Under the pieces are notes generated by a model, which worked only from the letters and a program-made list of their open reading frames with translations, was not told the origin of the DNA and searched no databases. The translations under genes and the position numbers were made by a program. A stretch of 64,000 bases of DNA from Nitrospinales bacterium (GTDB taxonomy: Bacteria; Nitrospinota; Nitrospinia; Nitrospinales; VA-1). Shown piece by piece: positions 34,298 through 59,299 of the stretch; within the stretch, counting starts at the first letter, position 1; every line of letters begins with the position of its first letter. The stretch spans positions 1,536,001-1,600,000 of the forward strand of contig OZ253496.1 of assembly GCA_965262115.1 (NCBI GenBank). The letters run 5' to 3'.

Positions 34298-34483
34298 CCC
34301 ACTAGCCGTGGGGGCAGATAGCCATAACTTTTTCCGGCAAAAAAAGTTGTCGCGGCTTAATGGGTTGGGGTGATTGACCTCCAGTGGGGTTGCCGTGCCC
34401 GAGTGAGAGGATGTTTTATTCTTCTTTAGCTTTCATGATCCTGTGATTTCCCCTGACGTTAACTTCATGCCCTGCAGGGTACA

Positions 34484-35449
34484 ATGAGTAATAACTTTCA
34501 CCGGCCTCCGGCAACCCAGCAAATTTATAAATCCACAATTCCTACGCAATACCACGGTTTTGTTATCGAACAGTATTTTTCCTTACGATTTCCCTATCAG
34601 ACCCGGCAAGCGTGGGTGGCGCAGATTATAAACGGAGACATCAGGTTAAACGGAGAAAAGGCCCAACCCGGGTGTATCCTTCATAAGGGGGACAGCATCA
34701 TCACTCATGCGGGGGTTCGTCAGGAACCTCTGGCGGACCGCAGGTTGAGGGTTGTTTATCAAGACAGGCATATCCGGGTGTTCAACAAGCCGGCACCCAT
34801 TCCCGTGCATCCGAGTGGCCGGTATTTTCAAAACAGCATGACCGAAGTCTTGAAGGAAATGTTTCCGGAGGAGGTTCCACGTCCTGTGCAACGGTTAGAC
34901 GCAACCACCACCGGGTTGATCGTGTTTGCCCGGTCCCGTCAGGCTGCGGGATTCTTAATGAAAGAGTTTCAAAACCATCGAGTGCAGAAAGAATATCTGG
35001 CCTTGGTGAAAGGCAAGCCGGAGAAAAAGCAGTTCACTTTGACAGCCCCTATTGGAGTGGTGGCCGGGGTGCAACGAGGCGTGGGAGAGGGAATCAGGAA
35101 ACCGCAAGCCGCGACCACCCAGGTTGAATGGTTGGCCTCCACCGACACTCATTCTATTTTAAAAGTGGTTCCCTTGTCTGGCAGAACCAATCAGATTCGC
35201 GTGCATTTATCCAGTCAGGACCTGCCAATTTTAAATGATGAGGTTTATGGAGAAGGGAACCTGGAAAGTTATGAGTATGGACTGCATGCCTGGAAGCTGA
35301 GTTTCCATTGTTTTGACCGCTATCTGGAGTTTGAAGTAGCTCCTCCTCCACATTTCCAATCTTTTTGGGAAGATTTTGATAGAAAAAGTTTATGGACTTA
35401 CTGCAATCATCACTTGTATCGGATGCACCCGCGAGTCAGGGAAAACTGA
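34484..35449 (+). CDS. RluA family pseudouridine synthase
   Basis: NKPA, QRLDATTTG and GRTNQIRVH motifs. Confidence 0.9.
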   Translation: MSNNFHRPPATQQIYKSTIPTQYHGFVIEQYFSLRFPYQTRQAWVAQIINGDIRLNGEKAQPGCILHKGDSIITHAGVRQEPLADRRLRVVYQDRHIRVFNKPAPIPVHPSGRYFQNSMTEVLKEMFPEEVPRPVQRLDATTTGLIVFARSRQAAGFLMKEFQNHRVQKEYLALVKGKPEKKQFTLTAPIGVVAGVQRGVGEGIRKPQAATTQVEWLASTDTHSILKVVPLSGRTNQIRVHLSSQDLPILNDEVYGEGNLESYEYGLHAWKLSFHCFDRYLEFEVAPPPHFQSFWEDFDRKSLWTYCNHHLYRMHPRVREN

Positions 35450-36435
35450 TAGCGCGCGCCAGGAGTCCGTTTTGGCTGGCTCCTATGGCGGGGATCACCG
35501 ATGTTTGTTTTCGCCAATTGATGGATGAAATGCAGGCAGGTGTTTTGATTTCAGAGCTGGTGTCAGCGAAAGGGCTCTTATTTAATTCCGGGAAGACCCG
35601 GAAAATGATGCGCATTCATAAAAATCCCGGAACCATTGTCGGGGTTCAGCTTTTTGGTGAGTCGGCGGAGGATATTGTTCAGGCGGTGAGCGTGGTTGAA
35701 GAGACGGGGGCAGATTTTGTCGACATCAATATGGGTTGCCCGGTAAAAAAAGTGGTCAAAAAAGGATGCGGGGCGGCATTGCTGCGCGACCCGGCTTATG
35801 TGGAAACATTTTTGACTACGATTAAAAAAGGCATTCGTCTGCCCCTCACCGTCAAAATGAGAACGGGTTGGAATGAAAATGAGTTGACCATCCATGAATG
35901 TGTCGAAGCGGCTTACCAGTCAGGTTGCGAGTGGGTGGCCATTCATGGGCGTACTCGCGCTCAGGGTTATGAGGGCAAAGCGGACTGGGACCTTATTGCT
36001 GAAGTCAAACACCGGGCGAAATTGCCGATCATCGGTAACGGAGATATCCGCAGTGCCGCCCAGGCAAAACAAAGATTGCAGGAAACCGGAGTGGATGCGG
36101 TGATGATCGGTCGTGGAGCTTTGCGGAATCCCTGGATTTTTAAAGAATGTGTCGGCCTGTCTGTCCAGCGTGCCGGTCTCGAACTTTTGAACCACTATTT
36201 AAATGGGTTGCGCGAAAATTACGATTTGCGATCGACGCTGATTTTGTTGCGCAAGTTTTCGTCCTGGTTGGCGTTCGCCTATCCCGGCGCGGCGAAGTTT
36301 AGAAAAAATATGTTCGAGTGCCATACCGCATCAGAGGTCATGCAACAGGCGGAAAACTTTTTCAGCCAGGTTGCCGAACTTCCAGTTCCGGCTTTTGAAG
36401 ACAGTGAAGAATTTATGATGGGAGGTCATGGTTAG
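35392..36435 (+). CDS. tRNA-dihydrouridine synthase (DusB-like)
   Basis: LAPMAG, NMGCP, HGRT and GNGDI motifs. Confidence 0.9.
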   Translation: MDLLQSSLVSDAPASQGKLIARARSPFWLAPMAGITDVCFRQLMDEMQAGVLISELVSAKGLLFNSGKTRKMMRIHKNPGTIVGVQLFGESAEDIVQAVSVVEETGADFVDINMGCPVKKVVKKGCGAALLRDPAYVETFLTTIKKGIRLPLTVKMRTGWNENELTIHECVEAAYQSGCEWVAIHGRTRAQGYEGKADWDLIAEVKHRAKLPIIGNGDIRSAAQAKQRLQETGVDAVMIGRGALRNPWIFKECVGLSVQRAGLELLNHYLNGLRENYDLRSTLILLRKFSSWLAFAYPGAAKFRKNMFECHTASEVMQQAENFFSQVAELPVPAFEDSEEFMMGGHG

Positions 36436-36525
36436 TGGAGTGCCTCCGCCTCCAGGGAAAAATAACCGAAGTGTTGAGGATTAGTCGTTGTAAATGGAGC
36501 ATTAATTTTATAAAATATACTTGAG

Positions 36526-37443
36526 ATGAAGGCATCCGAAAAAAGAAAAAAAGTTCATACCGTAAAAGGTGAAAGCCCCTTAATAGATACTCCGTTCACA
36601 CAGATATACTTGGGAGACTGTGCGGAACAGTTGCAAGATATTGACAGTAGCTCTATAGATTTAATCGTTACCTCTCCGCCTTATGCCGACCAACGGAGTA
36701 AAACCTACGGTGGTATCACGCCAGACAATTATGTTGAATGGTTTTTGCCTGTTTCCGCAGAGCTATTACGAGTACTAGAGCCTACGGGGACCTTTATCCT
36801 CAACATAAAAGAAAAGGTTGTAAATAGTGAGCGCCATACCTATGTTTTAGAACTCATCCTTGCTATGCGCAAACAGGGTTGGTTGTGGACAGAAGAGTTT
36901 ATCTGGCATAAGAAAAATTGTTATCCCGGCAAATGGCCCAATCGGTTTAGAGATTCCTGGGAGCGTTTGTTGCAATTTAACAAAAATCGCAAATTTAAGA
37001 TGTTTCAAGAAGAAGTCATGGTGCCAACGGGAGATTGGGCCAAGACCCGGCTTAAAAAACTGAGCGAGACAGATAAGACCCGTGACGAATCAAAAGTGGG
37101 TAGTGGCTTTGGAAAAAATATTTCAAACTGGACGAACAGGGATAAAGCCTATCCTACAAATGTTTTGCAAATGGCAACGGAATGTAGCAATAAAAGCCAC
37201 AGTGCCGCTTTTCCACCTACTTTGCCAGAGTGGTTTATCAAGCTTTTTACTTCGGAAAATGATGTTGTGCTTGACCCTTTTGCGGGTTCAGGAACGACTC
37301 TGAAAATTGCCAAGCGAATGAATCGGCATGCGATTGGTATTGAAGTTAATAAAGACTATTACGATCATATTTTAGAAGATTTGGATGAAAGACAATATTT
37401 TTTAATGGAAGAGTCCAAAAAATATGTCGCAAATCGTTCTTGA
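36526..37443 (+). CDS. Beta-class amino DNA methyltransferase (SPPY, likely m4C)
   Basis: TSPPY precedes DPFAGSGT. Confidence 0.92.
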   Translation: MKASEKRKKVHTVKGESPLIDTPFTQIYLGDCAEQLQDIDSSSIDLIVTSPPYADQRSKTYGGITPDNYVEWFLPVSAELLRVLEPTGTFILNIKEKVVNSERHTYVLELILAMRKQGWLWTEEFIWHKKNCYPGKWPNRFRDSWERLLQFNKNRKFKMFQEEVMVPTGDWAKTRLKKLSETDKTRDESKVGSGFGKNISNWTNRDKAYPTNVLQMATECSNKSHSAAFPPTLPEWFIKLFTSENDVVLDPFAGSGTTLKIAKRMNRHAIGIEVNKDYYDHILEDLDERQYFLMEESKKYVANRS

Positions 37444-38173
37444 TGTTGTCAGAGAATTTGTTAGGGGTAATATTGGTCATTTTCATAAAAAGCGGTTGCA
37501 AAATTTGGAGAAGTTGAAGTTAGGCAAAATCCTGAAACGTAAAAATCCCTACCTTTTTAAATCTAAAAATATACTTACCTCTGAGGCATTGGTCAAAACT
37601 TTGTTGGATGCCCACCTGTCCTCACAAGAAGAAACTATTTTTGGGGACTTTCTCGAGGAACTCGCGATATTTATCAATCAACAAGTTTATGCTGGAAAAA
37701 AATCTTCTGCAGATGGTATAGATTTAGAGTTTGACCGTGAGGGAATTCATTACATTGTTTCCATTAAGTCCGGACCTGATTGGGGAAACAGTAGCCAGAT
37801 TAAGCGAATGAAAGAGAATTTTAAACAAGCTCAAAAGATTCTTCGTACAGGAAACTCTAAACTCCATGTCAGGGCGATAAATGGTTGTTGCTATGGTAGA
37901 GGTGGCAGGGAGGATAAGGGGGACTACCATAAATTATGTGGGCAGCAATTCTGGGCTTTCATTTTCGGCAATGACAATATTTATACGGAAATTATTGAAC
38001 CTCTTGGATATCAGGCTAAAAAGAGAAATGAGGATTTTGACAAGCACTATGCCAGGATTGTAAACCAGTTTTCAAAATCATTTATGAATCATTTTTGTGA
38101 CCAAGGTGAAATTAATTGGGACAAATTGGTGCAATTTAATTCGGGCAAAAATAAGGTTTCTTTGAAAATTTAA
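37424..38173 (+). CDS. Type II restriction endonuclease (EcoO109I/PmeII-like)
   Basis: KNPYLF, ETIFGDFLE and GIDLEF..SIKSGPDWGNS motifs; overlaps the MTase. Confidence 0.75.
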   Translation: MSQIVLDVVREFVRGNIGHFHKKRLQNLEKLKLGKILKRKNPYLFKSKNILTSEALVKTLLDAHLSSQEETIFGDFLEELAIFINQQVYAGKKSSADGIDLEFDREGIHYIVSIKSGPDWGNSSQIKRMKENFKQAQKILRTGNSKLHVRAINGCCYGRGGREDKGDYHKLCGQQFWAFIFGNDNIYTEIIEPLGYQAKKRNEDFDKHYARIVNQFSKSFMNHFCDQGEINWDKLVQFNSGKNKVSLKI

Positions 38174-38311
38174 TTTTTCTGAACACCTTTTTGCCGGGCC
38201 GTAGGAATTTATTACTTGTGGTTTTGTGGTAAAATAAAAACGGCCCTGAACAAAACTGAAAAGAAAATCATTCAAATCCCCCCAAAGTTCTTTTATTTAA
38301 CGGCCCCATAA

Positions 38312-39130
38312 TTGAGCCAGAGAATCACAGCCTATGAAAAAACGCGCCCCGACCGGGTGCGTAAGCAGTATAAAGAGCGGGAAGAGTTCACCCTCTATGG
38401 CTGGAACTCCTGCATGAGCGCGTTCAAGGCGAGACCGGAAAGTCTCTTGCGCATGTTCTTCAGCCGCGCCCGTTCCGCTCAGTTGAAAGAGATCAAGGTT
38501 TTTTGCGGAGAAAATAAAATTCCCTATCGGCAATTGGATCAGGAATCCCTCAATAAAGTTGCGTCTGGTGTTCACCATGAAGGAGTGGTGATGGTTGTCC
38601 GGCCCCGCCTGCCGGAATCCGCGCATCGACTGATCCGGGGAACAATGCCCGACAGGGGACTGGTCGTGGCGTTAGACGGAATTGATAACCCGCATAACCG
38701 GGGAGCAATTTTGCGGACCTGCGCTTTTTTTGGTGTGCGGGGGTTGCTGGTTCCCGGAGATGGAAAGGTTGTTTCCTCTTCCGCCGCGAGAATGGCGGAA
38801 GGAGGACTGGAAGAAGTCCCGATATTTACCAGTAGTGACCTTCCCTCTGCATTAAGAGATTGCAGGGAGCGAGGCTGGTTTGTGGTGGGTGCGGATGCAA
38901 ACGCGAAAGAAACCCTTTTCGACGCTACAATCAAGTTTCCTGCTGTGGTGGTGATGGGAAATGAACAGGAGGGACTTTCGAGTCGAGTCAAACAAAAATG
39001 CGATAAGGTGGTCCGGGTTCCCGGAGAGGGTTCCCTGCAATCTCTCAATGTATCGGTCGCGGCTGGAATCATTCTGGCGGAAATCGGCCGCCGGAGAAAA
39101 ACCCGCAAAAAAAATATATCTGGTTCATGA
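38312..39130 (+). CDS. TrmH/SpoU RNA methyltransferase
   Basis: DNPHNRGAILR, GNEQEG and SLNVSVA motifs. Confidence 0.9.
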   Translation: MSQRITAYEKTRPDRVRKQYKEREEFTLYGWNSCMSAFKARPESLLRMFFSRARSAQLKEIKVFCGENKIPYRQLDQESLNKVASGVHHEGVVMVVRPRLPESAHRLIRGTMPDRGLVVALDGIDNPHNRGAILRTCAFFGVRGLLVPGDGKVVSSSAARMAEGGLEEVPIFTSSDLPSALRDCRERGWFVVGADANAKETLFDATIKFPAVVVMGNEQEGLSSRVKQKCDKVVRVPGEGSLQSLNVSVAAGIILAEIGRRRKTRKKNISGS

Positions 39131-39546
39131 TTTTCTTCGCAAAACTCCATCCCATGATCGTTCACTTTCCAGTGGGTTTGTTAATCAGTGGAGTGGTGTT
39201 TGAAATTTATGGAGTGCTTCGCAACGAGGAGGTGGTTGCAACCGCAGGCCGGTTTAATATCCGGTTTGGGTTCTGGTGTCTGTTTCCTGTTCTGCTGGTG
39301 GGGTTTCTGGGAATGCTCAGCCTGGAAAACACGGAAAAGTTCAGGGACTTTCTGTCCAGCCATTTGAAGTTTGCGTTCACCACTGCCGGAGTATTTATTT
39401 TGGCCATGCTGGTTTCCAGATATTTTCGCCAACCTTGGGGCAGGGTTTTGTATTTACTGATCATTGCCACAGGGGGAATTTGTGTTCTTACCACAGGTTA
39501 CTTCGGCGGAGAACTGGTTCATCGCTTCGGAGTTTCCACGCGCTAA
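39127..39546 (+). CDS. DUF2231 membrane protein
   Basis: HPMIVHFPVG and GYFGGELV motifs. Confidence 0.8.
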   Translation: MIFFAKLHPMIVHFPVGLLISGVVFEIYGVLRNEEVVATAGRFNIRFGFWCLFPVLLVGFLGMLSLENTEKFRDFLSSHLKFAFTTAGVFILAMLVSRYFRQPWGRVLYLLIIATGGICVLTTGYFGGELVHRFGVSTR

Positions 39547-39597
39547 GTGAAGGAGCCAATTCGTATCACCTATCGTAAAACATTCCGCTAAAAGACC

Positions 39598-39725
39598 AGA
39601 CCTTTGCATAACCCCGAGATTCTTCGTCACGTTGTTCCTCAGAATGACAAAACAGCCCTTTATTGTCATGCTGAGCTTGTCGAAGCATCTCGCTTTTCTG
39701 CTTTATCGACTTACGCAAAGGTCTC
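39598..39725. mobile_element. ~128-bp MITE with AGACCTTTGC...GCAAAGGTCT ends enclosing a CGTC REP pair (copy without micro-element)
   Basis: Near-identical in reverse orientation to 49640-49888 once the insertions are removed. Confidence 0.8.
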
Positions 39726-40106
39726 CTAAAAGACCAGTTGGTAGCCTGAAAACAGGCAGATGCCCATTACCAGAAGTCCTGCCAAATAAAATCCTGTCGC
39801 GGTTCTCGAAAAGGTATTGGTGTAGGCGTAGCCGGCAGAGAATCCATAGAGGATGGTAAACAAAAAAGCATAGCCTTGGTGCCCCTCAACCTCCACAATG
39901 GTTCGCAAGTTAATGTCGACAGAGACCATGCCGGAAAAATCGGCGACCACAGCGGCTAGAAGGCCCAGGCTCAGATTAAAAGCTCCTGCGGCTTTTAATT
40001 TTTCATCATTTTTTTTGTGGGCCAAAAAAAGCAGGGCCAGTCCGGCAACAAATAAGGCGGGAGAAAAATGGGAAATGAAAGGGTGAAACGATACGGAGCT
40101 GATCAT
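39726..40106 (-). CDS. DUF2231-like membrane protein
   Basis: HPFISHF motif; TM helices. Confidence 0.7.
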   Translation of the reverse strand: MISSVSFHPFISHFSPALFVAGLALLFLAHKKNDEKLKAAGAFNLSLGLLAAVVADFSGMVSVDINLRTIVEVEGHQGYAFLFTILYGFSAGYAYTNTFSRTATGFYLAGLLVMGICLFSGYQLVF

Positions 40107-40227
40107 TGCATGAGAAACTCTTGATTGGGTAGGTTAGGTGGTGGAGCAGGGACTCATCCAGTCGAGACAATTTTGCGATTGCCAGATAAAGTGGCGGCCT
40201 ACTGGCCCCACGCCTAGTGGGCGCCGG

Positions 40228-40536
40228 TCAGTCGTCTTTTTTTCTCAGGTCGCCGACAATGTCGCCGGCAAGATCGAGGTCGGCTTCTGAAAGGTTGACA
40301 TCCACGTCCACTTTGGTGGCGGCACTGATATCCTGTTCCAGGGCATCGATGTTGACGGTTTGTTTGAGTCCTTCCGCCTCATCCATGACCTCCTGTTTCA
40401 GGCCGCTGAAAGTTTTTTGGAATTCGCCCCAACCTTTACCAATGGCTCTTGCGAGTTTAGGCAGGTTCTGTGGGCCAATCACCACTACGGCGATGCCCAT
40501 AATAATCATCAGCTCAAAAAATCCGATATCAAACAT
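40228..40536 (-). CDS. tatB: Sec-independent translocase TatB-like subunit
   Basis: MFDIGFFELMII...IGPQNLPKLAR. Confidence 0.85.
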   Translation of the reverse strand: MFDIGFFELMIIMGIAVVVIGPQNLPKLARAIGKGWGEFQKTFSGLKQEVMDEAEGLKQTVNIDALEQDISAATKVDVDVNLSEADLDLAGDIVGDLRKKDD

Positions 40537-40678
40537 TCAGATGCTCCAATCTTGTTGCGATAGGGTTCATTCTAGCAGATTAAAGGGGTAAATGCATCAG
40601 GTTGGAATCAGGATTTTTCCGGATGGTTTTCTGCTGATCTTGAATAAAAAGTGGTTTGGGGTAGTATAAGACCAATTT

Positions 40679-41620
40679 ATGAGAATTATTCGAGGAACAA
40701 AAAATATAACCGGTGCCATTCCCTATCCTGTGATGGCGATTGGCAATTTTGACGGAGTGCATGTGGGCCATCAGACCCTGTTCCGTAAAACGGCTGAGTT
40801 GGCATTGGTGCATGAGGGCACTGCTATCGCGTTCACCTTCGAGCCGCATCCCTTAAAGATCATCGCGCCGGAAAAAGTACCCCCCCTGCTGACCAATTTC
40901 CATAAAAAGATGGAGTTGATGGAATCCTTTGGAATCGACCTGGTCATTTGCGCCGATTTCACCCGTAAATTCGCAGACCAGCGGCCGCGTGATTTTTCAA
41001 AAAATATTCTTTTTGAAAAGATAGGGGTGAAGGAGGTAGTGGTCGGGTTCGACTACGCATTTGGCCGTGGAAGGGAGGGGACGATTCCCTACCTTAAAAA
41101 GATGGGAGAGGAGTTTGGGTTTCAGGTTCATGTGGTGGAGCCCTTCAAGCTCAAGGGGCATACTGTGAGTAGTTCCCATGTGCGGGAACTGATAGAGGCC
41201 GGGCAGATAGAAACAGCGAGTCAATTCCTGGGCCGGGATTATTCCATTATAGGCCCGGTTATTTCCGGTTATAAAACCGGGCAGTCCATCGGGTTCCCCA
41301 CCGCTAATATTGATACCAGCAAGGTCCAGATACCGGGGACGGGGGTGTACGCGGTTCGGGTTGTCTATGAAAATAAACCTTATGATGCAGTGGCCAATAT
41401 CGGGTTTAATCCAACCTTTCATCGCGACCGATTAAGTGTTGAGGTGCATATCTTTGATTTTAATCAAGTGATCTACCATCATGAAATTGAAGTTCAGTTT
41501 GTAGAGCGCATTCGTAGTGAAATATCCTTCAAGTCCGCCGACGATCTGGTCGCTCAGATTAAGCACGATATTGATAAAGCCAAAAAAATACTGGAGCAGA
41601 CAGAAATCCCGAACAAGTGA
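40679..41620 (+). CDS. ribF: Bifunctional riboflavin kinase/FAD synthetase
   Basis: GNFDGVHVGH, GFPTAN and EVHIFDF motifs. Confidence 0.96.
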   Translation: MRIIRGTKNITGAIPYPVMAIGNFDGVHVGHQTLFRKTAELALVHEGTAIAFTFEPHPLKIIAPEKVPPLLTNFHKKMELMESFGIDLVICADFTRKFADQRPRDFSKNILFEKIGVKEVVVGFDYAFGRGREGTIPYLKKMGEEFGFQVHVVEPFKLKGHTVSSSHVRELIEAGQIETASQFLGRDYSIIGPVISGYKTGQSIGFPTANIDTSKVQIPGTGVYAVRVVYENKPYDAVANIGFNPTFHRDRLSVEVHIFDFNQVIYHHEIEVQFVERIRSEISFKSADDLVAQIKHDIDKAKKILEQTEIPNK

Positions 41621-41743
41621 TTCTTTAGTTGACAGGCATTCAAATTCCATAGGAATTTGCTATAATGCCGCTTTAAATTTTGCCCAAATAAATATTGTAT
41701 GTCTTCGTGAGTAAGAGCTCACGCCAACAGACTGAAAATGTAT

Positions 41744-41830
41744 GCCGAAGTGGCGGAATTGGTAGACGCGCATGATTCAGGTTCATGTGCCCGAAAGGGT
41801 GTGGAAGTTCGAGTCTTCTCTTCGGCACCA
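41744..41830 (+). tRNA. tRNA-Leu(CAG)
   Basis: CATGA-TTCAGGT-TCATG anticodon arm, long variable arm, CCA end. Confidence 0.95.
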
Positions 41831-42072
41831 TTTTTCAATTAATTAGACTGTTGGCTCACCCGGGTAATTATTCAGCAAAAGTTTGACCGGCTTTTTTCGA
41901 TGAACTGGATGGGGAATTGCCCCCTGCCTGATTGTCTAGGTTATGAGTGCCTCCTTGCGGACCTTCTGAATTGTGTTGTAATACAGGGCATCTCAAAAAA
42001 TTGCTTTTGTACCCCTGTGGGGCATGAAAGCTGATGGGGAATATAACAGCCACGAGCGGCCATTATGACAAG

Positions 42073-42480
42073 GAGACCTTTGCATAAGTCGAAAATCGAG
42101 ATGCTTCGACATACCCCTCCGGGGCAAGAAGGCAAAGGTCGAGTATCACTAGCTCAGCATGACAATACTGGGCCATTTTGTCATGCTGAGGAACAAGGCG
42201 ACGAAGACGTGACATTTTTCCTTACCCTTCGTGCCCGGCACGGGTAATCTCGCTTTGCATAGGCTTGGGGATTTGGGGTTGCCGTCTTTGCGAGGAGGCT
42301 TTAGCCGACGCGGCAATCCAGGTTTTGGTTTTTCTCTCGGGGTCATGCTGAGCCTGTTGAAGAATCTCGCCTTGCATAGGCCTGGGGATTCTTCACTGCG
42401 TTCAGAATGACAAGAAACGCCGGTTTGTCATCCTCAAGGAGCCAACGGCGACGAATGATCCGGGGTTACGCAAAGCTCTC
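42073..42480. mobile_element. Composite MITE (GAGACCTTTGC...GCAAAGCTCTC) with several CGTC REPs and two 39-bp micro-elements
   Basis: Terminal inverted repeats and internal homology to 39598-39725. Confidence 0.75.
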
Positions 42481-42573
42481 TATGATAAGGGTCTGCGAGT
42501 TGCCTTAGAGAAAATTACCGAATAAATAGAGATTTTTTGCAGTTAGTTCATTCACCAGTCCGGTTTGAATTCG

Positions 42574-46218: not shown

Positions 46219-46278
46219 TTTTCTTGACTACAAGAGGGTAAAAGAAGCGTGGCAATCCAACCCTCCCCCAGCCCCTCC

Positions 46279-46647
46279 CTATGAAGGGAGGGGAGGCAGA
46301 TGTTTTAAAATCTTTTCAAAAACTCCATCCAGGTTTTCATAAACATCCTGATTGGTAAATCGCAGAAACCGTATCCCCATATCTTCGATGGTTTTCTGCC
46401 GGATTTCATCCGATTGGATCGCCGTTCCACTGAAATGAGAGTCTCCATCGATTTCAATCGCGAGTTTTGCCGATGGGCAATAAAAATCCAGAATGTATCG
46501 GTCGACACTGTATTGTCGCCCAAACTTATATCCACCGGCCTGTCTGTTTCGCAAAAACTGCCACAAAGCCACTTCCGCTAGCGGCATTTCTTTGCGCAAG
46601 GATTCTCTTTTGGTTTTTTCTGTGTTTCTGTTGAAAATTTTTACCAT
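46279..46647 (-). CDS. DUF559 (Vsr-like PD-(D/E)XK) endonuclease flanked by 39-bp inverted repeats
   Basis: RESLRKEM, YILDFYC, IEIDGDSH and LRFTN motifs. Confidence 0.88.
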   Translation of the reverse strand: MVKIFNRNTEKTKRESLRKEMPLAEVALWQFLRNRQAGGYKFGRQYSVDRYILDFYCPSAKLAIEIDGDSHFSGTAIQSDEIRQKTIEDMGIRFLRFTNQDVYENLDGVFEKILKHLPPLPS

Positions 46648-46809
46648 AGCTTTCTACATTCCAAGCCCCCCTCCCTTCATAGGGAGGGGCTGGGGGAGGG
46701 TTGGATCAAAGTTAGCATCCGAACCTGAAAACAGGTTAACAAATAGTTGAAGATGGTGTAAATAATTTTTGTGTCTGCTTTGAGGCTGGAGGCGGCTCAA
46801 GTACTTTTT

Positions 46810-47189: not shown

Positions 47190-48284
47190 TCATCGTCCCA
47201 GGCAAATGCCGATTGACTCAGCAGTACGGACCAGTTGCGAGTCATCGGGTACCTGACGGACGATTCCAGCCAGGGATGCCAGCGGAACTAAGACAATATC
47301 CTGAGATTTCAAAGCCACCATAGTGCCAAATTTCCCTTCTGCGGCGGCTTCGACCGCCTGGGTTCCCAACCGGGTACCAAGCACCCGGTCAAAAGCCAAA
47401 GGAGTGCCACCTCTTTGCGTATGACCTAAAACCGTGCAACGCACTTCCAAATCGATTCGATCGCTCAATTGCTTGGCGATATAATTGCCCACTCCTCCCA
47501 ACTGAGCGACTCCCTGCAATCGGGTAGATGCCGCCTCACTGGTGATGGCTTCCTTGCCAATCTCTTTGGCACCTTCGGCCACCACGATCACGCTGAAAGG
47601 ACTGCCCCCTTCTTCCCGCAAGCGGATTTTTTCCCGGACTTTTTCAAGGTTGTAAGGGATTTCCGGAATAAGAATGACATGAGCTCCGCCGGAAATTCCG
47701 GCTTCCAGAGCGGTCCATCCGGCACTCCGGCCCATTACTTCCAGGATCATGATGCGATGGTGACTTTCGCCAGTGGTTTTCAGTCTGTCCAAGGCATCGC
47801 AAGCAACCTGCACGGCGGTCTGGTAACCAAACGTGTAGTCCGTTCCCACCAGATCGTTATCAATCGTCTTGGGAATGCCGATCACCGGCAACCCTTTTTC
47901 AAAAAATTTGTGCCCCAACTGCAGGGTTCCATCCCCGCCCACCACAAACAGGCAGTCCAGTTCAAGGCGCTTGAAATTTTCAATCGTTTTTTGGGAATAG
48001 TCCTGAGTGGTCAGGTTGCCGTCTTTATCGAATTGGCGGTACTCAAAAGGATCTCCTTTATTGGTGGTCCCGAGAATGGTTCCCCCTAACGTCAGGATGT
48101 CCTTGGTTCCGGCTACGGTGAGCTTGCAGTTGCGGTCAAAGATCAAGCCTTCGAAACCCTGCTCGATGCCAATGACTTCAGCTTTATAGGTGATGATCGC
48201 GGATCGGGTGACCGCCCGGATGACCGCATTGAGTCCCGAGCAATCTCCCCCGCCGGTCAGAATGCCAACACGTTTAAGGCCCAT
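47190..48284 (-). CDS. pfkA: 6-phosphofructokinase (group III-like)
   Basis: GGGDCSGLN, GGDGT, PKTIDND and EVMGR motifs. Confidence 0.93.
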   Translation of the reverse strand: MGLKRVGILTGGGDCSGLNAVIRAVTRSAIITYKAEVIGIEQGFEGLIFDRNCKLTVAGTKDILTLGGTILGTTNKGDPFEYRQFDKDGNLTTQDYSQKTIENFKRLELDCLFVVGGDGTLQLGHKFFEKGLPVIGIPKTIDNDLVGTDYTFGYQTAVQVACDALDRLKTTGESHHRIMILEVMGRSAGWTALEAGISGGAHVILIPEIPYNLEKVREKIRLREEGGSPFSVIVVAEGAKEIGKEAITSEAASTRLQGVAQLGGVGNYIAKQLSDRIDLEVRCTVLGHTQRGGTPLAFDRVLGTRLGTQAVEAAAEGKFGTMVALKSQDIVLVPLASLAGIVRQVPDDSQLVRTAESIGICLGR

Positions 48285-49604
48285 GGGAAACAGTTACAGG
48301 TTCCGCAATCAGGTCATAATCCGCCGCGTGCTTTATGGTTACCGGAATTATTTCTCCGGGTTCGGCTTCACATTTTTCGAGGATGACCTGTCCGTCAATA
48401 TCCGGTGCCTGGGAGGCGAGCCTTCCCGTCATCAAATAATTTTCCTGCGGGTCAAAACCTTCCACCAAAACCGGTTCCACCCTGCCCACGCGCTCCCGGT
48501 TTTTTCTGAGAGCAATATCTTTTTGAAATTCCATCAGGATATCGCGGCGCTCTTCTTTGACCTCCTGCGGTACCCGGTCGGGATAATCGAAGGCAGTGGT
48601 GCCTTCCTCATCCGAATAAGTAAAAATCCCAACATGGTCGAATTCCATTTCACAAAGAAACCGGACCGTATGTTTAAAATGCGTCTCGGTCTCCCCCGGA
48701 AATCCGATGATAAACGTGGTTCTCAGCGCCACATCGGGAATTTTTAATCGAACTTCTTCGAGCATTTTCCGCACCCCGCCTGCCGTTTCATGCTTTTAAG
48801 CATCTCGTCATGCGTATGTTGCAGAGGCACATCAATGTAGCGGCAGACTTTGGGCTCTGAGGCGATGAACTCAATCACCTCCGAGTTCAAAAAGGTCGGG
48901 TAACAATATAAAAGCCTGATCCACTCCAACCCATCGACCTTGGCCATTTCTGCCAGCAAGCGAACCAGTCCGTCTTTCATTCCCAAGTCAAAACCGTACA
49001 TGGTGGTGTCTTGCGAAATCAGGTTAAATTCTTTGACTCCCTTGCTGGCCAGGTTCTCGGCCTCGGCCAGAATGGATTCCGGCGAGCGACTGCGCATCGG
49101 CCCACGCATTTTCGGAATGATGCAAAACGCGCAACGGTTGGAGCAACCTTCGGAGATTTTTAAATAAGCAGTATAAAAAGCTGTGCTCAACAACCGGTCG
49201 GTGTACGACTCATAATATTCGGCGGGTGTGGCGACATGGTTTTTGGATAACGGGTCTGTATCCCCAATGATGTTTTTCAATTGAGGGTACTGGCCCACCC
49301 CCAGCAGGTGGTCGATTTCTGGAATTTCATCAAGCAGTTCCTGACTATACCGTTCGGCCAGACAACCGGTGACGACCAACTGTTTGCATTCCCCCTCGGT
49401 CTTGTGCCGGGCCATTTCCAGAATCGTGTCGATCGATTCCTTTTTGGCAGACTCTATAAAGCCGCAAGTGTTGACAATGATTACCTCTGCATCTTCTTCA
49501 TTCTGGGTGAGGCTGAATCCAGAAGAAACCAGATCGCCCAGAACCCTTTCGGTGTCCACCGTGTTTTTCGGACACCCCAAACTCACCATGCCAATTTTTT
49601 TCAT
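48274..49604 (-). pseudogene. rimO: Ribosomal protein S12 methylthiotransferase, frameshifted near 48775
   Basis: SLGCPKN, NTCGFI, CSNRCAFC and C-terminal APDIDG TRAM motifs across two ORFs. Confidence 0.9.
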
Positions 49605-49639
49605 TCTCTGTCTTAACTCCCTGAATCCCCTTGTCAGGC

Positions 49640-49888
49640 AGACCTTTGCGTAAGTCTATAAAGCAGAAAAGCGAGATGCTTCGAGATACCCCTACGGGGC
49701 ATGAAGTTTAATGAAGAGGATATCACATACCCCTCCTACCCCTCCGGGGCATGAAGTTAATGGAAGGGGATATAACAGGCTCAAGAAGGCAAAGGTCGAG
49801 TATCACTAGCTCAGCATGACAATAAAAGGCTATTTTGTCATTCTGAGGAGCTATTGCAACGAAGAATCTTGGGTTATGCAAAGGTCTC
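49640..49888. mobile_element. MITE/CGTC composite carrying three stacked 39-41 bp micro-elements
   Basis: Filled counterpart of 39598-39725. Confidence 0.85.
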
Positions 49889-49937
49889 CTTCTTAGGGGG
49901 AAGTTCTTTTAAGTATTACCCTTCCGGGGCACGAAGG

Positions 49938-50627
49938 CTAATGAAGAGTATCACGTGCGCTTGAGCGTTTGGTCCGCTTTATAGGCAATGCAGTGCTGGC
50001 AGCATGTGATACCCCTTCACTTGTTTCATGCCCCGTAGGGGTACGCCGAGCGGTTAACTTTTTATCCATTTTGCGAATGAGTTCATCAAAACTCTTTTTT
50101 TTAATCACCTTGTAAAACTGACTGCGCAAATTGTTCCGCATGCTGATCCCGTCCAGAATGACATCCACCACCTGCCATTTACCTCCGGCCAGAGTCAGAT
50201 GAAAATCGATGTCGACTTCCCCTTCCTTTTCATGAATCACCGTCAGGGGAACCACAACAACTTTCTTTTTTTCTTTGGTTTTTCCATATTCCAGATCCAG
50301 TTCGGCAAAAAATTTCGCAGAACTGGGAAATGCCACATGGACGAACAGGTCCCCGAGCAGGGTTTTAAACTTTTCTCGCTCGGGATCACTGCGCTTAGCC
50401 CAATGTTTTCCTAAAGCTTTTTTGCTGATTTCTGCGACATTCAGCAAACCAAGAGCAGATTGGGAATGCTTCTGGTTGTCTGCCTCTTCTAAACCCGAAA
50501 CATCCGCTTTAATCTGTTGAATTTCTCCCAACAACTTTTTCACCGAATCCTGGGGGTCTTTGGTTTCTGCCCAGAGCGGACTGGTGGTCAAAACAATAAA
50601 AAGAACAGCACTTAAGGTTTTTTTCAT
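49938..50627 (-). CDS. MlaC/Ttg2D-like periplasmic lipid-binding protein with repeat-derived C-terminal extension
   Basis: Signal peptide; ALGKHW and WQVVDVILDGISMRNNLRSQF motifs. Confidence 0.8.
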   Translation of the reverse strand: MKKTLSAVLFIVLTTSPLWAETKDPQDSVKKLLGEIQQIKADVSGLEEADNQKHSQSALGLLNVAEISKKALGKHWAKRSDPEREKFKTLLGDLFVHVAFPSSAKFFAELDLEYGKTKEKKKVVVVPLTVIHEKEGEVDIDFHLTLAGGKWQVVDVILDGISMRNNLRSQFYKVIKKKSFDELIRKMDKKLTARRTPTGHETSEGVSHAASTALPIKRTKRSSARDTLH

Positions 50628-50736
50628 ATTCGTCTATGATAGGTTCAGCATTGCATATTTAGTGGGGGCTTCTCATAAATTATAACGCAAACCGCAAGTT
50701 CATTTAACAAATTTTAATCCCTTTATAAAACGACAC

Positions 50737-53216: not shown

Positions 53217-53763
53217 GCGCGGGGCCGACTGCAATAGCTTTCCCTGGCAAGCAATAGGTTAGCCCGGCCTGATGAGCCGCCGAGGGCAAAAACTTCTCCC
53301 CTGACAGGTGGACGTGATATTTTTCCTAAATTTTCGTACCCCGAAGGGATATTGAGGGGGGTTGATTTTTTAACTCCCTCTTTCTCAAACTCGAACAATA
53401 GGAAGACGTTTTGTTCGACGGGTTGGGGTGATTGACCACAAGAAGGGGGTTTGTCGTCATTGCGAACGAAGTGAAGCAATCCAGTTGCTAGTACCCCAAA
53501 ACCGTATGAAACACAGCACCAATTCCGACACACCAGTAAATGTCGGCACCAATAAGGTTCCAAACTGCGGCTGATTTCTCTAAAGGTCATTGCATCACCG
53601 CCTTAACCACAAAGAAAAAGAACGCGAGCATGGTGAGGACGGTGTTCGCCACCGCCGACCAGATCATGATTGTGTGCGCAATATTCCCATCACTAACTTC
53701 ATGCCCCGTAGGGGGGGTATAATAGTTTTTCCATATCACTTGCCATTCTGAGTTTGTAGGTCT

Positions 53764-53863
53764 GTCATGCTGAGCTAGTGATATTTGATCTTTGAATTCT
53801 TGCCCCGGAGGGGTATGTCGAAGCATCTCGATTCTTCGATTTTTCGACTTATGCAAAGGGCTC
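53764..53863. repeat. Half MITE/CGTC REP with a 39-bp micro-element (53777-53815)
   Basis: Reverse-strand homolog of 42073-42163. Confidence 0.75.
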
Positions 53864-53959
53864 CCTGTCAAGGGAGGGGTGAATGATCTCTTTACAACCT
53901 TGGTAACACTGAACTATTTCACAAGGCTCAAGGCCAGCCAACCCTCCCCCAGCCCCTCC

Positions 53960-54328
53960 CTATGAAGGGAGGGGAGGCAGATGTTTTAAAATCCTTTCGT
54001 AAACTCCATTCAGGTTTTCATAAACATCCTGGTTGGTAAAACGCAGAAACCGTATTCCCATATTTTCGATAACCTTCTGTCGGACCTGGTCCGATTGTGC
54101 AGCCTCTTCGCTAAAATGAGAATCCCCATCGATTTCAATCGCGAGTTTTGCCGATGGGCAATAAAAATCCAGAATGTATCGATCAACACTGTGTTGCCGC
54201 CGAAACTTGTGTCCATTTGCCTGCCTGTTTCGCAAAAACTGCCACAAAGCCACTTCCGCTGGGGGCATTTCTTTGCGCAAGGACTTTCTCCTGGTTTTTT
54301 CTGTATTTTTATTAAAAATTTTTACCAT
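53960..54328 (-). CDS. DUF559 endonuclease, paralog of 46279-46647, flanked by inverted repeats
   Basis: Colinear 122-aa paralog; KFRRQH and IEIDGDSH motifs. Confidence 0.88.
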   Translation of the reverse strand: MVKIFNKNTEKTRRKSLRKEMPPAEVALWQFLRNRQANGHKFRRQHSVDRYILDFYCPSAKLAIEIDGDSHFSEEAAQSDQVRQKVIENMGIRFLRFTNQDVYENLNGVYERILKHLPPLPS

Positions 54329-54508
54329 TGTTTTTTTGTTTTTCATATCCCCTCCCTTCATATGGAGGGGTTTGGGGAGGGCTGGATTAAAGCAATGCAT
54401 TATCCTGAACTTCCCCTGGTTGAGTGGACACATTGAAAGTGTGGATAATACATTTTTGGAGGTGTGTCTATGGTGAGCAAGCGAAGGAGTTTTAGTAAGG
54501 AGGTGGGA

Positions 54509-54697
54509 ATGCAGTACCAGCTCAAAATTGTTTTCGTGGATAATCAGGAGCTGGTTCTCGATACGACCCAAAAGCATGGTTTCAGCGATGACCTGGAACT
54601 GTTCGAGGTGACCACCTCGGAGGAAATTTTTGTGGTTCCCCTCAAACAGAGCAAATATATCTCCCGCGACGCCGGAATCTTTCAAATAGGAGTCTAA
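54509..54697 (+). CDS. Small hypothetical protein (62 aa)
   Basis: AAGGAGGT RBS before MQYQLKIVF. Confidence 0.6.
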   Translation: MQYQLKIVFVDNQELVLDTTQKHGFSDDLELFEVTTSEEIFVVPLKQSKYISRDAGIFQIGV

Positions 54698-54778
54698 CTT
54701 CCCCGCATTAGAGATTGACACGAGCAGATGACTTAGCTAAAATCCGTTGCATGTTTATTAAAACGGGGGGGGGGGATA

Positions 54779-57569
54779 GTGGTTACTTTGAAAAGCCGTG
54801 CTGTATTGAGTGCTGTGCAGTCTGCGTCCAGTTCTGGTTCGTCGGGTGAGGGGCACGCCCTATGCGCTGTGAGAAACCCCGCACTACCGAAGAAAGTCTT
54901 CCGCCATTTCCTGGCTTCATGCCCGTCCCTGGTCCGGTTATGCACAGTCGCCATCCTTGTCCTGCTGTTCATGGCCCCCGTTGCCAGCGCCCAAGTCACC
55001 GCCAATGCCGGGGACGATCAGATCGTCGCAGAGGGCGCGTTCGTCACGCTTGACGGCGGTGACAGTTCCGGCCCCGGCAGTGCGCTGACCTATGAATGGA
55101 GGCAGACCGCCGGTACTGAGACCGCTCTCCCAGTCGTGCTAGACGACATTGCGGCAATCTCACCAACCTTCACTGCGGGTACCGCCGTGGAACTGGAATT
55201 TGAATTGACCGTGAGTGATGGTACCTCCTCGGATACCTACGAGGTGGTGGTCAGTGTAGTTCCGAACACTGTCCTGAGTTTCGGTACGGCCACAATCTCC
55301 GACCGGACTTTTATATTTACACAGAATACACTGGTTGGCGAAATGACCGCCCTGCACGTAGCCAGTGGCGGCAACGTGCCCCTGACCTACAGCATAATAG
55401 AGACGCTGCCAGCGGGGCTAAGCTTTAATCCTGTCACCCGCACAATCAGCGGCACCCCGACCGCCGTTAGCCAGAGAGCTATCTATACATACGAGGTCAG
55501 CGACGCGGATGCTGACACCGTTAACAACAGTGTTTTCATCACCGTTAATCCCGACCCCGCCATCATAGTCAACCAGGCTCCGACCGCCGTGGTCGTGCAG
55601 CTTGCGGATCAGACCCCAAGCCCGTTGATAACGGAGGACATAGTCAACCCCCCCCCATCACTGGCGTTGACGGCGGCGTTCTGATCACGCTTGACGGCAG
55701 CCGCAGTTTTGATCCCGACGGCGATACCCTGGCCTACCTCTGGACCCAGGTTCTTGGTCAGGATATTCTGGCCGAAGGAGCCTTCTCCTCTGAAGAAATA
55801 AGCCCTCAAATCACCATTCCGGCCGACTTCCCTGTCGGAACGGAGCTGGAGTTCAGATTGACTGTGACCGATAGTCCGCAGCCGGGCCAGCCAAGCCTAT
55901 TCACCATCGACACCGTGACCATCACCGTCGTCACGGACGGGACTGCTCCGGTCATTACCCTGAACGGTATGGCGACGGTCTCCATCGATCTGGGTTCTAC
56001 CTATGCGGACGACGGGGCAAGCGCCACAGACAACATTGACGGGGATATTTCCAGCTCGATCACAACGACCATTACCGACAGCAGCGGTGCTGTGATCGCT
56101 GCGGTCGATACCGGTACGGTTGACGTCTACACCATCACCTACACGGTCTCCGATGCGGCGGACAACCCGGCCGTTGCCGTTATTCGCACCATCAGCGTCA
56201 CCGCTGATGTGACGAGGTTTGCCGACCTCAATAACGCGGTCCTGCCGGAAGTGGCGCGTGCCATAGCAGACCAGACGGTGGGTGCGATAACAGAACGTAT
56301 TGGTCAGGCCAGGAATGGTACGACCCGTTCTGTGTCACCATCGCCGGGCAGTCCACATTGACCGGGGCGGCATCTGCCCACGGGCAGGCCATAGCCGATG
56401 GCACGCTGAGTCTGAAGGATGTACTGGGTAACTCCGACTTTGTACTGCCGCTGGATGATATGGGCGGCATGGACAACGGGATGCTCTCCTCCCTGACCTT
56501 ATGGGGCGGGGGCGGCTACCGCAGCTTCGAAAGTTCCGGCGGGAGCGTGAACTTCGACGGCGACCTGTTCAGCGCCCATCTGGGACTGGACGCCCGACCG
56601 CGCGACGATCTGCTGATCGGTCTGGCGGCGTCCTGGAGCCAGAGCGATCTTGACTACAGAGGAGGCCTCGACCTGAACGGCGAGCACAAGCTGGACCTCA
56701 CCAGCGTCCACCCCTATGTGAGCTGGGAAGTATTGGCCGGACAACTGGACCTGTGGGCCACTGCGGGCTACGGCTGGGGTGACCTTGAGATCGCCAATGA
56801 CGGGCTAGACCGTGTATCGAGTGATGTCGAGACGCGGACTGTGAGTGTGGGCGGTGATTATCAGTTGCCGCAGATAGGATCAACCACGTTCCGGCTCAAG
56901 GGTTCAGCCTTGCTGACCGAGCTGGAAGTGGATGGCAGCGATGATATAGAAGCGCTGGATGTGGAGGCCAGCCTGTTTCGGATGGTCCTGGAAGGGGCCC
57001 ATAAGCACATGTTGTCTGACGGGGCTTATGTGGAGCCGAGCCTGGAGGCTGGAGTGCGGTATGACGGCGGCGACGGCGAAACCGGTTTCGGGGCCGAGCT
57101 GGGTGCCGGTTTCCGTTACACCGATCCGACCGTCGGCCTGACTCTGGAAGGCAGGGCGCGGACTCTGGTGGGACGGGACAATTATGAGGAATGGGGCGTT
57201 TCCGGCCTGATTCTTCTGGAGCAGGGCCGAAACGGGCGGGGACTGTCGTTCAGTCTGAGTCCCGGCTACGGCAGTACAGACAGCGGCACGCAAAAAGTAT
57301 GGCAGGAGGGTCTGCGTGACGAGATCAGCCGGGATTACGGCGTGCGGTTGGACACCAGTCTTGGTTACGGGCTGACCGCTCCCGGCGGACGGGGACTGCT
57401 GACTCCCTACAGCGAGATGACCTTCGGCGGCTCTTCCAGGAGCTACCGCCTGGGGATGAGATGGGAACTTGATGCGTTGTTTGACCTGAACCTGACCGGT
57501 GAACGCAGTGAAAGCAACAGCAACACCACCGATCACGCCATCATGCTGAAGGGCGATATCCGGTTTTAA
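54779..57569 (+). pseudogene. Autotransporter-like surface protein (PKD/Ig/DUF5011-type repeats + C-terminal beta-barrel) with two frameshifts
   Basis: ANAGDDQ..VTLDG, LPAGLSF..ISGTP and APVITLNG..ATDNIDGD motifs; terminal Phe barrel; frameshifts at C9 55648-55656 and near 56332. Confidence 0.8.
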
Positions 57570-57666
57570 CCCGGTTGTGGTCATTGAGTGAAGCGCGGCT
57601 CAAGCCGCACTTCCGGCAACCCTGCCAGTCCTGCCGTCTGCAACGGTCTTGTGTGGGCGTGGCCCG

Positions 57667-58206
57667 TTAATAATGGATCATGGAGTGAACGGGGGTGTTT
57701 TTGAGTTTTTCCCGGCCTTTCAGGAAGTCTAGTTCGATCAAGAAGGCGGCTTCCACAACTGTTACATTGCTAAAATTTTTCTGGATCAAATCGAGGGTGG
57801 CGGCCAGGGTTCCTCCGGTGGCCAGCACATCATCAATGACGAGGATATTTTGTCCTGGCCGGAATGCATCCTGATGAACTTCGACGGTATCGGTTCCGTA
57901 TTCCAGGGAATAGGTTTCCTGAAAAGTTTTGTAAGGCAGTTTGCCCGGTTTTCGAACCATGACCACTCCTGTACCCAGCGCATAGGCCAGGGCTGAGGCA
58001 AAGATAAACCCGCGCGCTTCCACGCCGACCACCACGTCTACCCGCTTATCTGCGTAACGATCCTTCAGGGAATTAATGGTTTTCTGGAAGGCGACAGGGT
58101 CGCCCAGGAGCGGCGTGATATCTTTAAAGATGATTCCCTCTTTGGGGAAGTCTGGAACATCGCGGATGATTTGTTTCACAGCGGTCTCACCTTGCTTAAA
58201 ATTCAT
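57667..58206 (-). CDS. apt: Adenine phosphoribosyltransferase
   Basis: PDFPKEGIIFKDITP, EARGF and DDVLATGGT motifs. Confidence 0.96.
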   Translation of the reverse strand: MNFKQGETAVKQIIRDVPDFPKEGIIFKDITPLLGDPVAFQKTINSLKDRYADKRVDVVVGVEARGFIFASALAYALGTGVVMVRKPGKLPYKTFQETYSLEYGTDTVEVHQDAFRPGQNILVIDDVLATGGTLAATLDLIQKNFSNVTVVEAAFLIELDFLKGREKLKNTPVHSMIHY

Positions 58207-58263
58207 ATTTGCTCTGAGTTGTGACCCTGGTTTTTTATCAAAGATCTGGATAAAAAGAAAACC

Positions 58264-58971
58264 TTATCTTTTGAGAGGCAGATATTTTACAGGATCTTTG
58301 GGATGCGTGTCGTTTCGCACTTCAAAATGGAGATGGGATCCGGTGGACCGGCCGGTGCTTCCCATCAGAGATATTTTTTGTCCCTGCTTGACCCGGCTTC
58401 CTTTTTTAGCGATGAGTTTTGAGTTATGCGCATAAAGGGTGGTCAGATGATGTCTGTGTTTGATGATGACCATTTTCCCATAGCCGGTGGGCCCCCAGCC
58501 ACTAAACACCACCTCACCTGCGGCAGCGGCATGAACGGGAGTTCCTTTGGGTGCGGCAATATCGATTCCTTCATGCCTGCGCCCGTTTCGCATCCCGAAT
58601 CGAGACGTCAGAGTTCCCTTCGTCGGCCAGACGAGAAAACCTTTGCGGGGTTTGACGGTGGGCGATGATTTCTTTTTTGCGGTACGGGATACAGGTTTAT
58701 CGGGGACCTTTAAAACCCGGCGGGCTCCCGGTATCCATAACCGGATTCCTTCCCGGAGTTTTGCGGGATCTCTTATATGGTTGGCGCGCCGCAGAACTTC
58801 CACACCCAGATCATAGGTTTTGGCAATGCGGTACAGGGTCTGGCCTTTTTGTACCGTGTGGTACACCCCTTCCCCCTTTTCGGGCCAGGGATCGAATTGG
58901 AAACTCTGGCATCCCGTAAGGAATAAAATGATAATAAAAAAAACTGATTTGTAATAATGATGGCAGGACAT
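58264..58971 (-). CDS. LysM + M23 peptidase lipoprotein (NlpD-like)
   Basis: LTGC lipobox; LysM; HEGIDI and HLHFE motifs. Confidence 0.9.
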   Translation of the reverse strand: MSCHHYYKSVFFIIILFLTGCQSFQFDPWPEKGEGVYHTVQKGQTLYRIAKTYDLGVEVLRRANHIRDPAKLREGIRLWIPGARRVLKVPDKPVSRTAKKKSSPTVKPRKGFLVWPTKGTLTSRFGMRNGRRHEGIDIAAPKGTPVHAAAAGEVVFSGWGPTGYGKMVIIKHRHHLTTLYAHNSKLIAKKGSRVKQGQKISLMGSTGRSTGSHLHFEVRNDTHPKDPVKYLPLKR

Positions 58972-59299
58972 TTTATAGGGGCTTGAATATGCTCTAACTT
59001 ATTGAAAATTGTAGCATTTTTTCAAATTCGTTTACAAGTTTCGCAGCATCCTGTATAACCGAAAAATCGTTTTAGCGGAGAGCCTCCGCTGGCAACCGGC
59101 AAGGGCATGAAGGCTAATGATGGGGATATCACAAGCCAAGATAATTTTTTCTAGCCAGACGTGATATTTTTCTTAAGTCTTCGTGCCCCTGTGATATCCC
59201 CTCCGCTAAATTCATGCCCGGAACGGGTAGAAGGGGTAAATAGTTATTACCAGTTGCCTCCACGGCTAGTGGTGGGATTTAGAATCGGGAAAAACTACG

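Follow-up and report, generated by a model that had tools for sequence, protein, structure and literature searches.

The window analysed here is a 64,000-nt stretch (C1:1536001-1600000) of C1, the single contig that makes up the 2.68-Mb genome (93.9% complete) of a Nitrospinales bacterium. It holds many copies of a micro-element, a gene-less repeat of 39-41 bases from marine Nitrospina-type bacteria, which lie alone, end to end, inside one another, and within repetitive extragenic palindromes (REPs) of the CGTC type. A hidden Markov model profile made from 13 window copies gave 445 matches in the genome, compared with 2 when the genome was reversed, and 250 copies, nearly all of them 39-41 nt long, passed a full-length filter. 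Their density is highest around the GC-skew minimum at 1.46 Mb. Named records with matches belong to Nitrospinaceae or Nitrospinota, and an exact 19-nt core is present in 20 of 22 genomes within the genus and in none of the 18 genomes from other genera; the named records and the compared genomes may overlap. Counts given below rest on related sites and related genomes, and all p values overstate. No Rfam family matched at the micro-element, and literature searches returned no paper on it, leaving room for an earlier account of nesting in small dispersed repeats (SDRs) by Elhai in 2008; the string "Nitrospin" does not occur in 10.64898/2026.10.21.760802. Viral contigs gave 26 matches, with full copies in only 3 contigs. 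Six copies are on one prophage-like 50-kb viral contig, a possible vehicle between strains, and no mobiliser was seen at the one prophage-like viral locus inspected.

The micro-element sits in its targets exactly, without target duplication. For 142 of the 185 filled sites the genome also contains an empty look-alike, and the poorest matches among them may be due to chance. The copy carries a small hairpin in which positions 3-6 pair with positions 10-13 around a TNC/GNA triloop (T7 in 99%, C9 in 94%). Of the 250 full-length copies, 88 abut another copy or lie within one, 36 end to end and 52 internally, and 51 of the 52 internal nestings fall into four registers: three in the same orientation, at +9 (18 cases), +20 (17, and 1 more shifted by a 2-nt host indel) and +30 (7 and 1), and one in the opposite orientation at 17 (6 and 1), with a single case elsewhere. 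Three of the +20 rows were judged from the right part of the host alone. Identical registers are seen in other genomes, with the dominant register differing by genome. The preliminary description had proposed, from three nestings in the window, that insertion is specific for position and orientation, and the genome-wide tabulation of offsets and orientation bears this out: nesting is not random. Five copies, of which four are identical, form an array with offset-20 nesting at C1:814839-815075.

The same description placed the target in the hairpin loop. The loop is one register of four, accounting for only 18 of the 52 internal events, and is not supported as the general target, since +20, +30 and opposite 17 fall outside the hairpin. 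A sequence-blind, structure-specific nick at the boundary between the loop and the 3' stem of hairpins would fit the observation that offset 9 ties for the most frequent internal register, with no shifts to 6, 7 or 8, and that most targets are palindromic repeats. It leaves 34 of the 52 internal events outside the loop, and it conflicts with the non-self targets, which show no preference for unpaired bases, with the existence of a target motif and with the ancestry markers shared by the offset-9 cases, all described below. The genome-wide tabulation has largely refuted this model, which we now regard as very improbable. Also improbable, in our judgement, is a ruler or helical-phase mechanism, in which one enzyme anchored at a landmark would cut one strand at intervals of about 10 nt (0, 9, 20, 30, 39-41) and the opposite strand with a 3-nt stagger (17). 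The same-strand registers do lie within 1 nt of 10, 20 and 30 (post-hoc P about 0.003), and in other host repeats the insertion sites also lie about 9-11 and 18-20 nt apart. Opposite-strand insertions at 7, 27 and 37 were not seen; the +20 and +30 registers can be accounted for by flank likeness, because element positions 15-20 and 25-30 form a direct repeat; and the coupling between subtype and register described below is left unexplained.

The letters at the three nestings in the window are as first reported. Cases 1 and 2 are clean, each with a 9-nt host arm, an insert of 41 or 40 nt, and a 30-nt host remainder, all in one orientation. Case 3 (34412-34490, minus strand) holds up in its letters but is better explained otherwise, as the left 9 nt, TACTCATTG, seem not to be the element's own arm: they differ by 1 mismatch from TGCTCATTG, part of a different repeat family, and by 3-4 from the micro-element's arm. 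The motif [GA]CTCATT[GA] lies directly 5' of the micro-element at 7 places in the genome, including case 3, one of which carries a complete offset-9 composite, and the case-3 locus is occupied by that other repeat family in relatives. The best reading of case 3 is that an offset-9 composite, without its first 9 nt, landed in the other repeat. The objection that such nestings might be assembly artefacts is not upheld in kind, the offset-9 junction being matched 56 times in 14 other assemblies, with 38 of the 56 matches continuing directly into the host remainder. Short-read unitigs from two studies, one run of which may be the source sample, reproduce case 2 without differences, with junction overlaps of only 28 and 19 letters, below the 31-letter threshold. 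Of 19 relatives, 14 have an empty case-2 locus, 1 has only a 29-nt hairpin there, and 4 have the element at another position and orientation.

The nestings had also been taken as independent events, and this did not survive the comparison. A derived GG>CT change at +3/+4 is shared by 16 of the 18 offset-9 hosts and by 0 solo copies, the insert of case 2 is identical in 7 of the 18 offset-9 composites of the genome, and the case-1 composite is found again at C1:1853348. The un-nested form of the case-1 host (42112-42150) stands in an identical REP context, of which an empty version is also present (39665-39696). In other assemblies, 20 rows have the unchanged offset-9 host remainder and 8 the changed one. 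At the same time, the 18 composites fall into 13 outer contexts and have 11 distinct inserts among them, a diversity that speaks for repeated events. The bases introduced by GG>CT are identical to the right flank of a REP variant in which the micro-element occurs.

Copies of the micro-element and related features in the window (positions of the window).
Feature	Positions	Strand	Remark
Left arm and loop of case 1 host (element positions 1-9)	49728..49736	+	
Case 1 insert, 41-nt copy, offset 9	49737..49777	+	
Case 1 host remainder, positions 10-39, with shared GG>CT	49778..49807	+	solo form at 42112-42150
41-nt copy in tandem, offset 0 of case 1 host	49687..49727	+	
Case 2 host, positions 1-9	59230..59238	-	
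Case 2 insert, 40 nt	59190..59229	-	
Case 2 host remainder	59160..59189	-	GGGG unchanged
Case 3, nine bases taken for host arm	34482..34490	-	better read as other repeat family, TGCTCATTG motif
Case 3 insert, degenerate 40-nt copy	34442..34481	-	
Case 3 degenerate host remainder, positions 10-39	34412..34441	-	
Copy in CGTC REP	11439..11477	+	4 nt 5' of internal CGTC
Copy in CGTC REP	42208..42246	-	register as at 11439
Solo copy	42112..42150	+	un-nested counterpart of case 1 host
Empty allele of REP holding 42112 and 49687	39665..39696	-	exact insertion, no duplication
Solo copy in CGTC REP	7535..7573	-	
Solo copy in CGTC REP	11369..11407	-	
Solo copy	21397..21435	-	
Solo copy	42010..42048	+	
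Solo copy	49917..49955	+	
Solo copy	50005..50043	-	within hairpin of another repeat family
Solo copy	53313..53351	-	
Solo copy in REP	53777..53815	-	
Degenerate copy	53681..53714	-	
Truncated copy, positions 11-38	59103..59132	+	

Outside its own copies, the micro-element also follows rules of sequence. Two insertions into CGTC REPs, at 11439 and 42208, had been noted to share a register, and this is confirmed: among the 250 full-length copies, the motif CTTCRYC starts 1 nt past the junction in 15, 10 nt past it in 6, and elsewhere in 1. Over 115 clusters of non-self sites, drawn from 263 sites, a weak and degenerate target motif, WWN|NSYNC, is found (-3 T 51%, -2 W 77%, +2 S 84%, +3 Y 76%, +5 C 58%), contrary to the proposal that targeting is not driven by a motif; C at +5 reaches 83% among 131 metagenome sites. 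There is no fixed tetra- or pentanucleotide at the target, the motif being degenerate only. When 80 positions of the element were ranked with a matrix made free of self sites, offset 9 came third, opposite 17 seventh, +20 63rd and +30 65th. C at +5 is present in 9 of 17 hosts nested at +20, 4 of which are tandem neighbours, versus 30 of 382 copies. Folding of the target sites did not reveal the expected preference for loops or unpaired bases, the pairing probability at the junction being average (0.47-0.54 on both strands over the 115 clusters). The variable middle of the element was considered as a guide pairing with the target and was rejected, as the best-duplex score was not above that of permuted targets (z at most 1.2); scans of its columns against the targets gave scattered matches only.

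The register that a copy occupies is coupled to its hairpin subtype. Donors with G6 are found at +20 or +30 in 25 of 27 cases, those with T6 at opposite 17 in 16 of 19, and those with C6 at non-self sites in 185 of 251. Similar copies at distally unrelated sites also share flanks from -3 to +3 above permuted pairs (z 3-9.5), with mostly background values beyond. The simplest reading of these data is that each register arose from few founding insertions, followed by flank-guided copying to look-alike sites. A general rewriting of flanks upon insertion was first suggested by a biased comparison and was not upheld outside self-nesting by a fair control; flank overwriting is thus not general, because this control shows little excess of filled over empty sites. 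It might be argued that the registers are historical accidents, with rare founders spread by gene conversion and by hitch-hiking in an IS5-like miniature inverted-repeat transposable element (MITE) and in the insertion sequences (ISs) IS3 and IS110, and without dedicated targeting. The shared GG>CT and the identical inserts are what such a history would leave, as is the variation of the dominant register among genomes, and copies do ride in larger elements and swap flanks. This explanation does not readily accommodate the strict ends and common motif over 115 target clusters, the pair between position 16 and the last base that is kept across many backgrounds (see below), or the independent positions at one orthologous locus, and we consider it rather unlikely.

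The pattern of substitutions indicates which parts of the element are held together. In 403 distinct copies, the two most strongly covarying pairs are 6/10, which is Watson-Crick in 369 and shows that the hairpin is kept by compensatory change, and, in second place, position 16 with the last base. The latter pair is Watson-Crick in 343 copies (TA 210, CG 109, AT 18, GC 6), the remaining combinations being 45 T.G, 6 C.A and 9 others, and the adjoining pair of base 17 with the second-last base is G-C in 387. At 18 tandem junctions the last base matches base 16 of its own copy in 18 of 18 and that of the next copy in 11 of 18. This covariation makes it likely that a folded strand keeps both ends together, and we infer that the 16/last and 17/second-last pairs continue the hairpin across the joined ends, which would align both junctions in a folded strand or circle. 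Single copies fold no better than shuffled ones (z about 0).

A joined junction of this kind invites comparison with IS200/IS605 elements, which transpose as single strands without target duplication, carry terminal hairpins, pass through a single-stranded circle, and insert at a fixed target tetra- or pentanucleotide. The micro-element resembles them in the lack of duplication, the terminal hairpin, and a possible single-stranded circle with which the pairing of the ends is compatible; it differs in having one hairpin, no fixed tetranucleotide, no Y1 transposase and no clear replichore bias. It could thus be mobilised in trans by an HUH transposase (Y1-like, or like a REP-associated tyrosine transposase, RAYT) through peel-and-paste, in which the junction of a single-stranded circle would complete an 8-bp triloop hairpin and the target would mimic the terminal arm only. 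The absence of duplication and the 16/last pair that extends the hairpin across the joined ends would be explained, and target positions +3 and +5 are like element positions 3 and 5, with the joined-end junction present in tandem arrays. C at +4, which pairing would require, is instead depleted, no clear replichore bias is seen, and the coupling of subtype to register is left unexplained. Moreover, no Y1 or RAYT gene was found in the genome, which is 93.9% complete, and no such gene is flanked by the micro-element; a motif scan for HUH proteins gave none that was convincing. Y1 genes occur in 7 of 22 relatives, in none beside a full copy, with a median copy number of 17 versus 18, indicating that they are not linked to the copies. 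Mobilisation by an HUH transposase is therefore unlikely, in our view.

Other enzymes were sought in the genome. No bacterial reverse transcriptase (RT) was found, the single RT match being broken and in an atypical region; this region, C1:1-100000, has lower GC (38-44%) and simple repeats, and is possibly non-bacterial DNA joined to the contig. A Y2 search gave no match, though its positive control likewise matched nowhere, and there are 4 matches to tyrosine recombinases. The genes bracketed by copies comprise housekeeping genes, IS genes, spurious open reading frames (ORFs) and an Ssn-like gene. The latter (C1:2573200-2573538) encodes a GIY-YIG protein and lies between CGTC REPs, in some of which the micro-element is a passenger. 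Its usual stop codon is lost, and a second Ssn-like gene (C1:2378867-2379190) is truncated; relatives have at least three Ssn-like types, each with different repeats. According to PMC11893778, SsnA cuts its test substrate after nt 20, releasing a 20-nt 5' fragment, which by our own count from the oligonucleotide table places the C of CGTC fifth after the cut. The same spacing, 4 nt 5' of an internal CGTC, is seen at 20 of 382 sites, and C at +5 is among the two strongest positions of the target motif. Genomes with an Ssn-like gene have a median of 43 copies versus 6 in those without (p 0.007). The Ssn-type nuclease is thus the best candidate mover, a weak lead that we would not expect to prove correct; Ssn nucleases are not known to move DNA.

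The exact insertion, the four registers, the two covarying pairs, the motif, the subtype-register coupling and the shared derived markers can be joined in one scheme, of which the folding, cutting and homing steps are our inference. The strand would fold so that the 4-bp triloop hairpin stacks on the 2-bp helix of the 16/last and 17/second-last pairs, bringing both junctions side by side. These junctions and WWN|NSYNC sites would be cut by a single-strand nuclease or strand-transfer enzyme acting in trans, which would occasionally found a register. Once in a repeat, a copy would then be transferred to empty sites resembling its own by flank-guided copying (homing), in some cases along with a few flank bases; GG>CT may travel with offset 9 because flank bases are sometimes carried along in this way. 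In its general form, that the micro-element is copied as a folded single strand with its ends side by side, and that the site is set by the degenerate motif and likeness to the donor's flanks and not by the loop, we give this reading roughly an even chance. The more specific form, in which a small nuclease of the Ssn (GIY-YIG) type or an unknown enzyme is the mover, the folded strand aligns the ends, and homing relies on about 3 flank bases on each side, is a tentative suggestion that is probably wrong in some part.

Several observations weigh against this reading. With respect to the fold, position 16 and the last base form T.G in 45 of 403 copies, and the active strand is ambiguous, as the GNA triloop and a G.T at 2/14 favour one strand and the other wobbles (83 versus 33) the other. 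A bias between leading and lagging strands, as might be expected of a single-stranded intermediate, is not apparent (114 of 250, p 0.18), a signal that passively copied composites would blur. With respect to the site, the motif leaves the +20 and +30 registers unexplained. The sharing of flanks may reflect residual kinship of the host repeats, as an earlier version of the test was positive at distal control windows and position -10 also scored (z 3.5), and the near-junction difference between filled and empty non-self sites is barely above that between empty sites (left 0.13 versus 0.09, right 0.10 versus 0.08). With respect to the enzyme, the Ssn-type nuclease is a candidate only: 0 of 382 sites lie at the canonical Ssn cut upstream of a terminal tag, and the CGTC involved is an internal one on the opposite strand. 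Ssn-like genes are also present outside the genus, where no micro-element was found, and three genomes with 17-61 copies yielded no such gene.

Larger elements use the micro-element as a target or carry it along. An IS110 of about 1.2 kb with DEDD and Transposase_20 domains is present in about 26 copies (e.g., C1:736446-737643), and 25 of 26 left ends lie after the micro-element's CCCCT, in 18 contexts, with a CT core repeated at both junctions. In its left non-coding end, TTACCCCT and CCCGAAG enclose a small hairpin and match the left and right target. Under the bridge-RNA model of PMC11208160, these are predicted to be target guides of a bridge RNA that match the micro-element hairpin. A divergent copy has CCCGCAG and sits in micro-element copies with a TGC loop, so that the guide base changes with the loop base. 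The IS110-in-loop junction is present in only 4 of 23 genomes, indicating that IS110 is a parasite of the micro-element and not its mover. One IS110 copy is inserted in IS110's own non-coding end (2144782). An IS3 (C1:696127-696213 and further copies) carries a 41-nt micro-element just 3' of its A6G slippery site and kept transposing; several IS3 copies have an IS110 inserted in this 41-nt copy, and no empty IS3 allele was found in 41 genomes.

Within the window, a miniature element with ends AGACCTTTGCRTAA, which we take to be IS5-like, is built from CGTC REPs (49640-49890, 42070-42260) and passively spreads many micro-elements. Another modular repeat family, which has a CCAC-N5-GTGG hairpin at its end and is inserted beside gene ends (59075-59280, 34298-34500), takes the micro-element at spacings of 0, 9 and 20, and shares 10 positions with it in its first 20 nt. 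Genes of the DUF559 family lie between inverted CCCTCCC repeats (46255-46706, 53938-54385), with 7 matches in the genome; DUF559 was considered as a mobiliser and rejected, being present in only 10 of 23 genomes. Elsewhere, the RimO gene looks split between two ORFs (48744-49604 and 48274-48774, minus strand), the first of which matches only the first 271 of 432 RimO positions.

Among known systems, the micro-element works like the very small repeats that move without duplication, such as REP singlets and SDRs, shares features with IS200/IS605 as set out above, and lacks the defining traits of REP/RAYT systems, MITEs, miniature IS110 elements and Ssn-related motifs (SRMs). Carrying neither terminal inverted repeats nor a target duplication, it is not a MITE. 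The SDRs of Nostoc described by Elhai et al. in 2008 are reportedly 21-27 nt long; the micro-element is longer, belongs to a different phylum and has a degenerate motif in place of a fixed octamer, a distinction drawn from descriptions. CGTC REPs have been reported without a dedicated transposase (PMC3116915, PMC3733652), and SDR5 to be inserted precisely in HIP1 (PMC4390886). Like REP and REPIN elements, the micro-element is short, extragenic, lineage-restricted, hairpin-bearing, repeated hundreds of times and a target of ISs; it differs in having no terminal GTAG or CGTC tag, in that the singlet is the unit and in being mostly unpaired. It further differs from REP/REPIN-RAYT systems in its sharp ends, which are base-paired inward, its nesting at fixed registers, and the absence of a RAYT. 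The likeness to the Ssn NTS/SRM system lies in the Ssn-like gene between CGTC repeats and in insertion 4 nt 5' of CGTC, whereas an SRM has the order CGTC tag, palindrome and C (PMC11893778), which the micro-element lacks; the CGTC that it uses is internal, on the opposite strand, and it never sits at the canonical site. Bridge-RNA elements of the IS110/IS621 type target REPs (PMC11208160; 10.64898/2026.03.19.712850), and this likeness holds for the neighbouring IS110 only, with its CT core in the loop and predicted guides that match the hairpin. When the micro-element itself was assessed as a miniature IS110 donor, its junctions had no shared core and its ends no donor-guide match.

How very small repeats without a dedicated transposase, such as CGTC REPs and SDRs, spread is a long-standing question, to which the micro-element brings testable handles: sharp ends, the 16/last pair, four registers, markers of flank transfer, and a candidate nuclease whose cut spacing is known. 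The micro-element also provides a natural case in which the predicted bridge RNA of an IS110 matches a genus-specific micro-repeat and covaries with its loop base, in hosts that are abundant marine nitrite oxidisers. If a folded strand does home by a few flank bases in the manner suggested here, this would represent a minimal form of programmable, scarless DNA insertion that needs neither a transposase nor a guide RNA.

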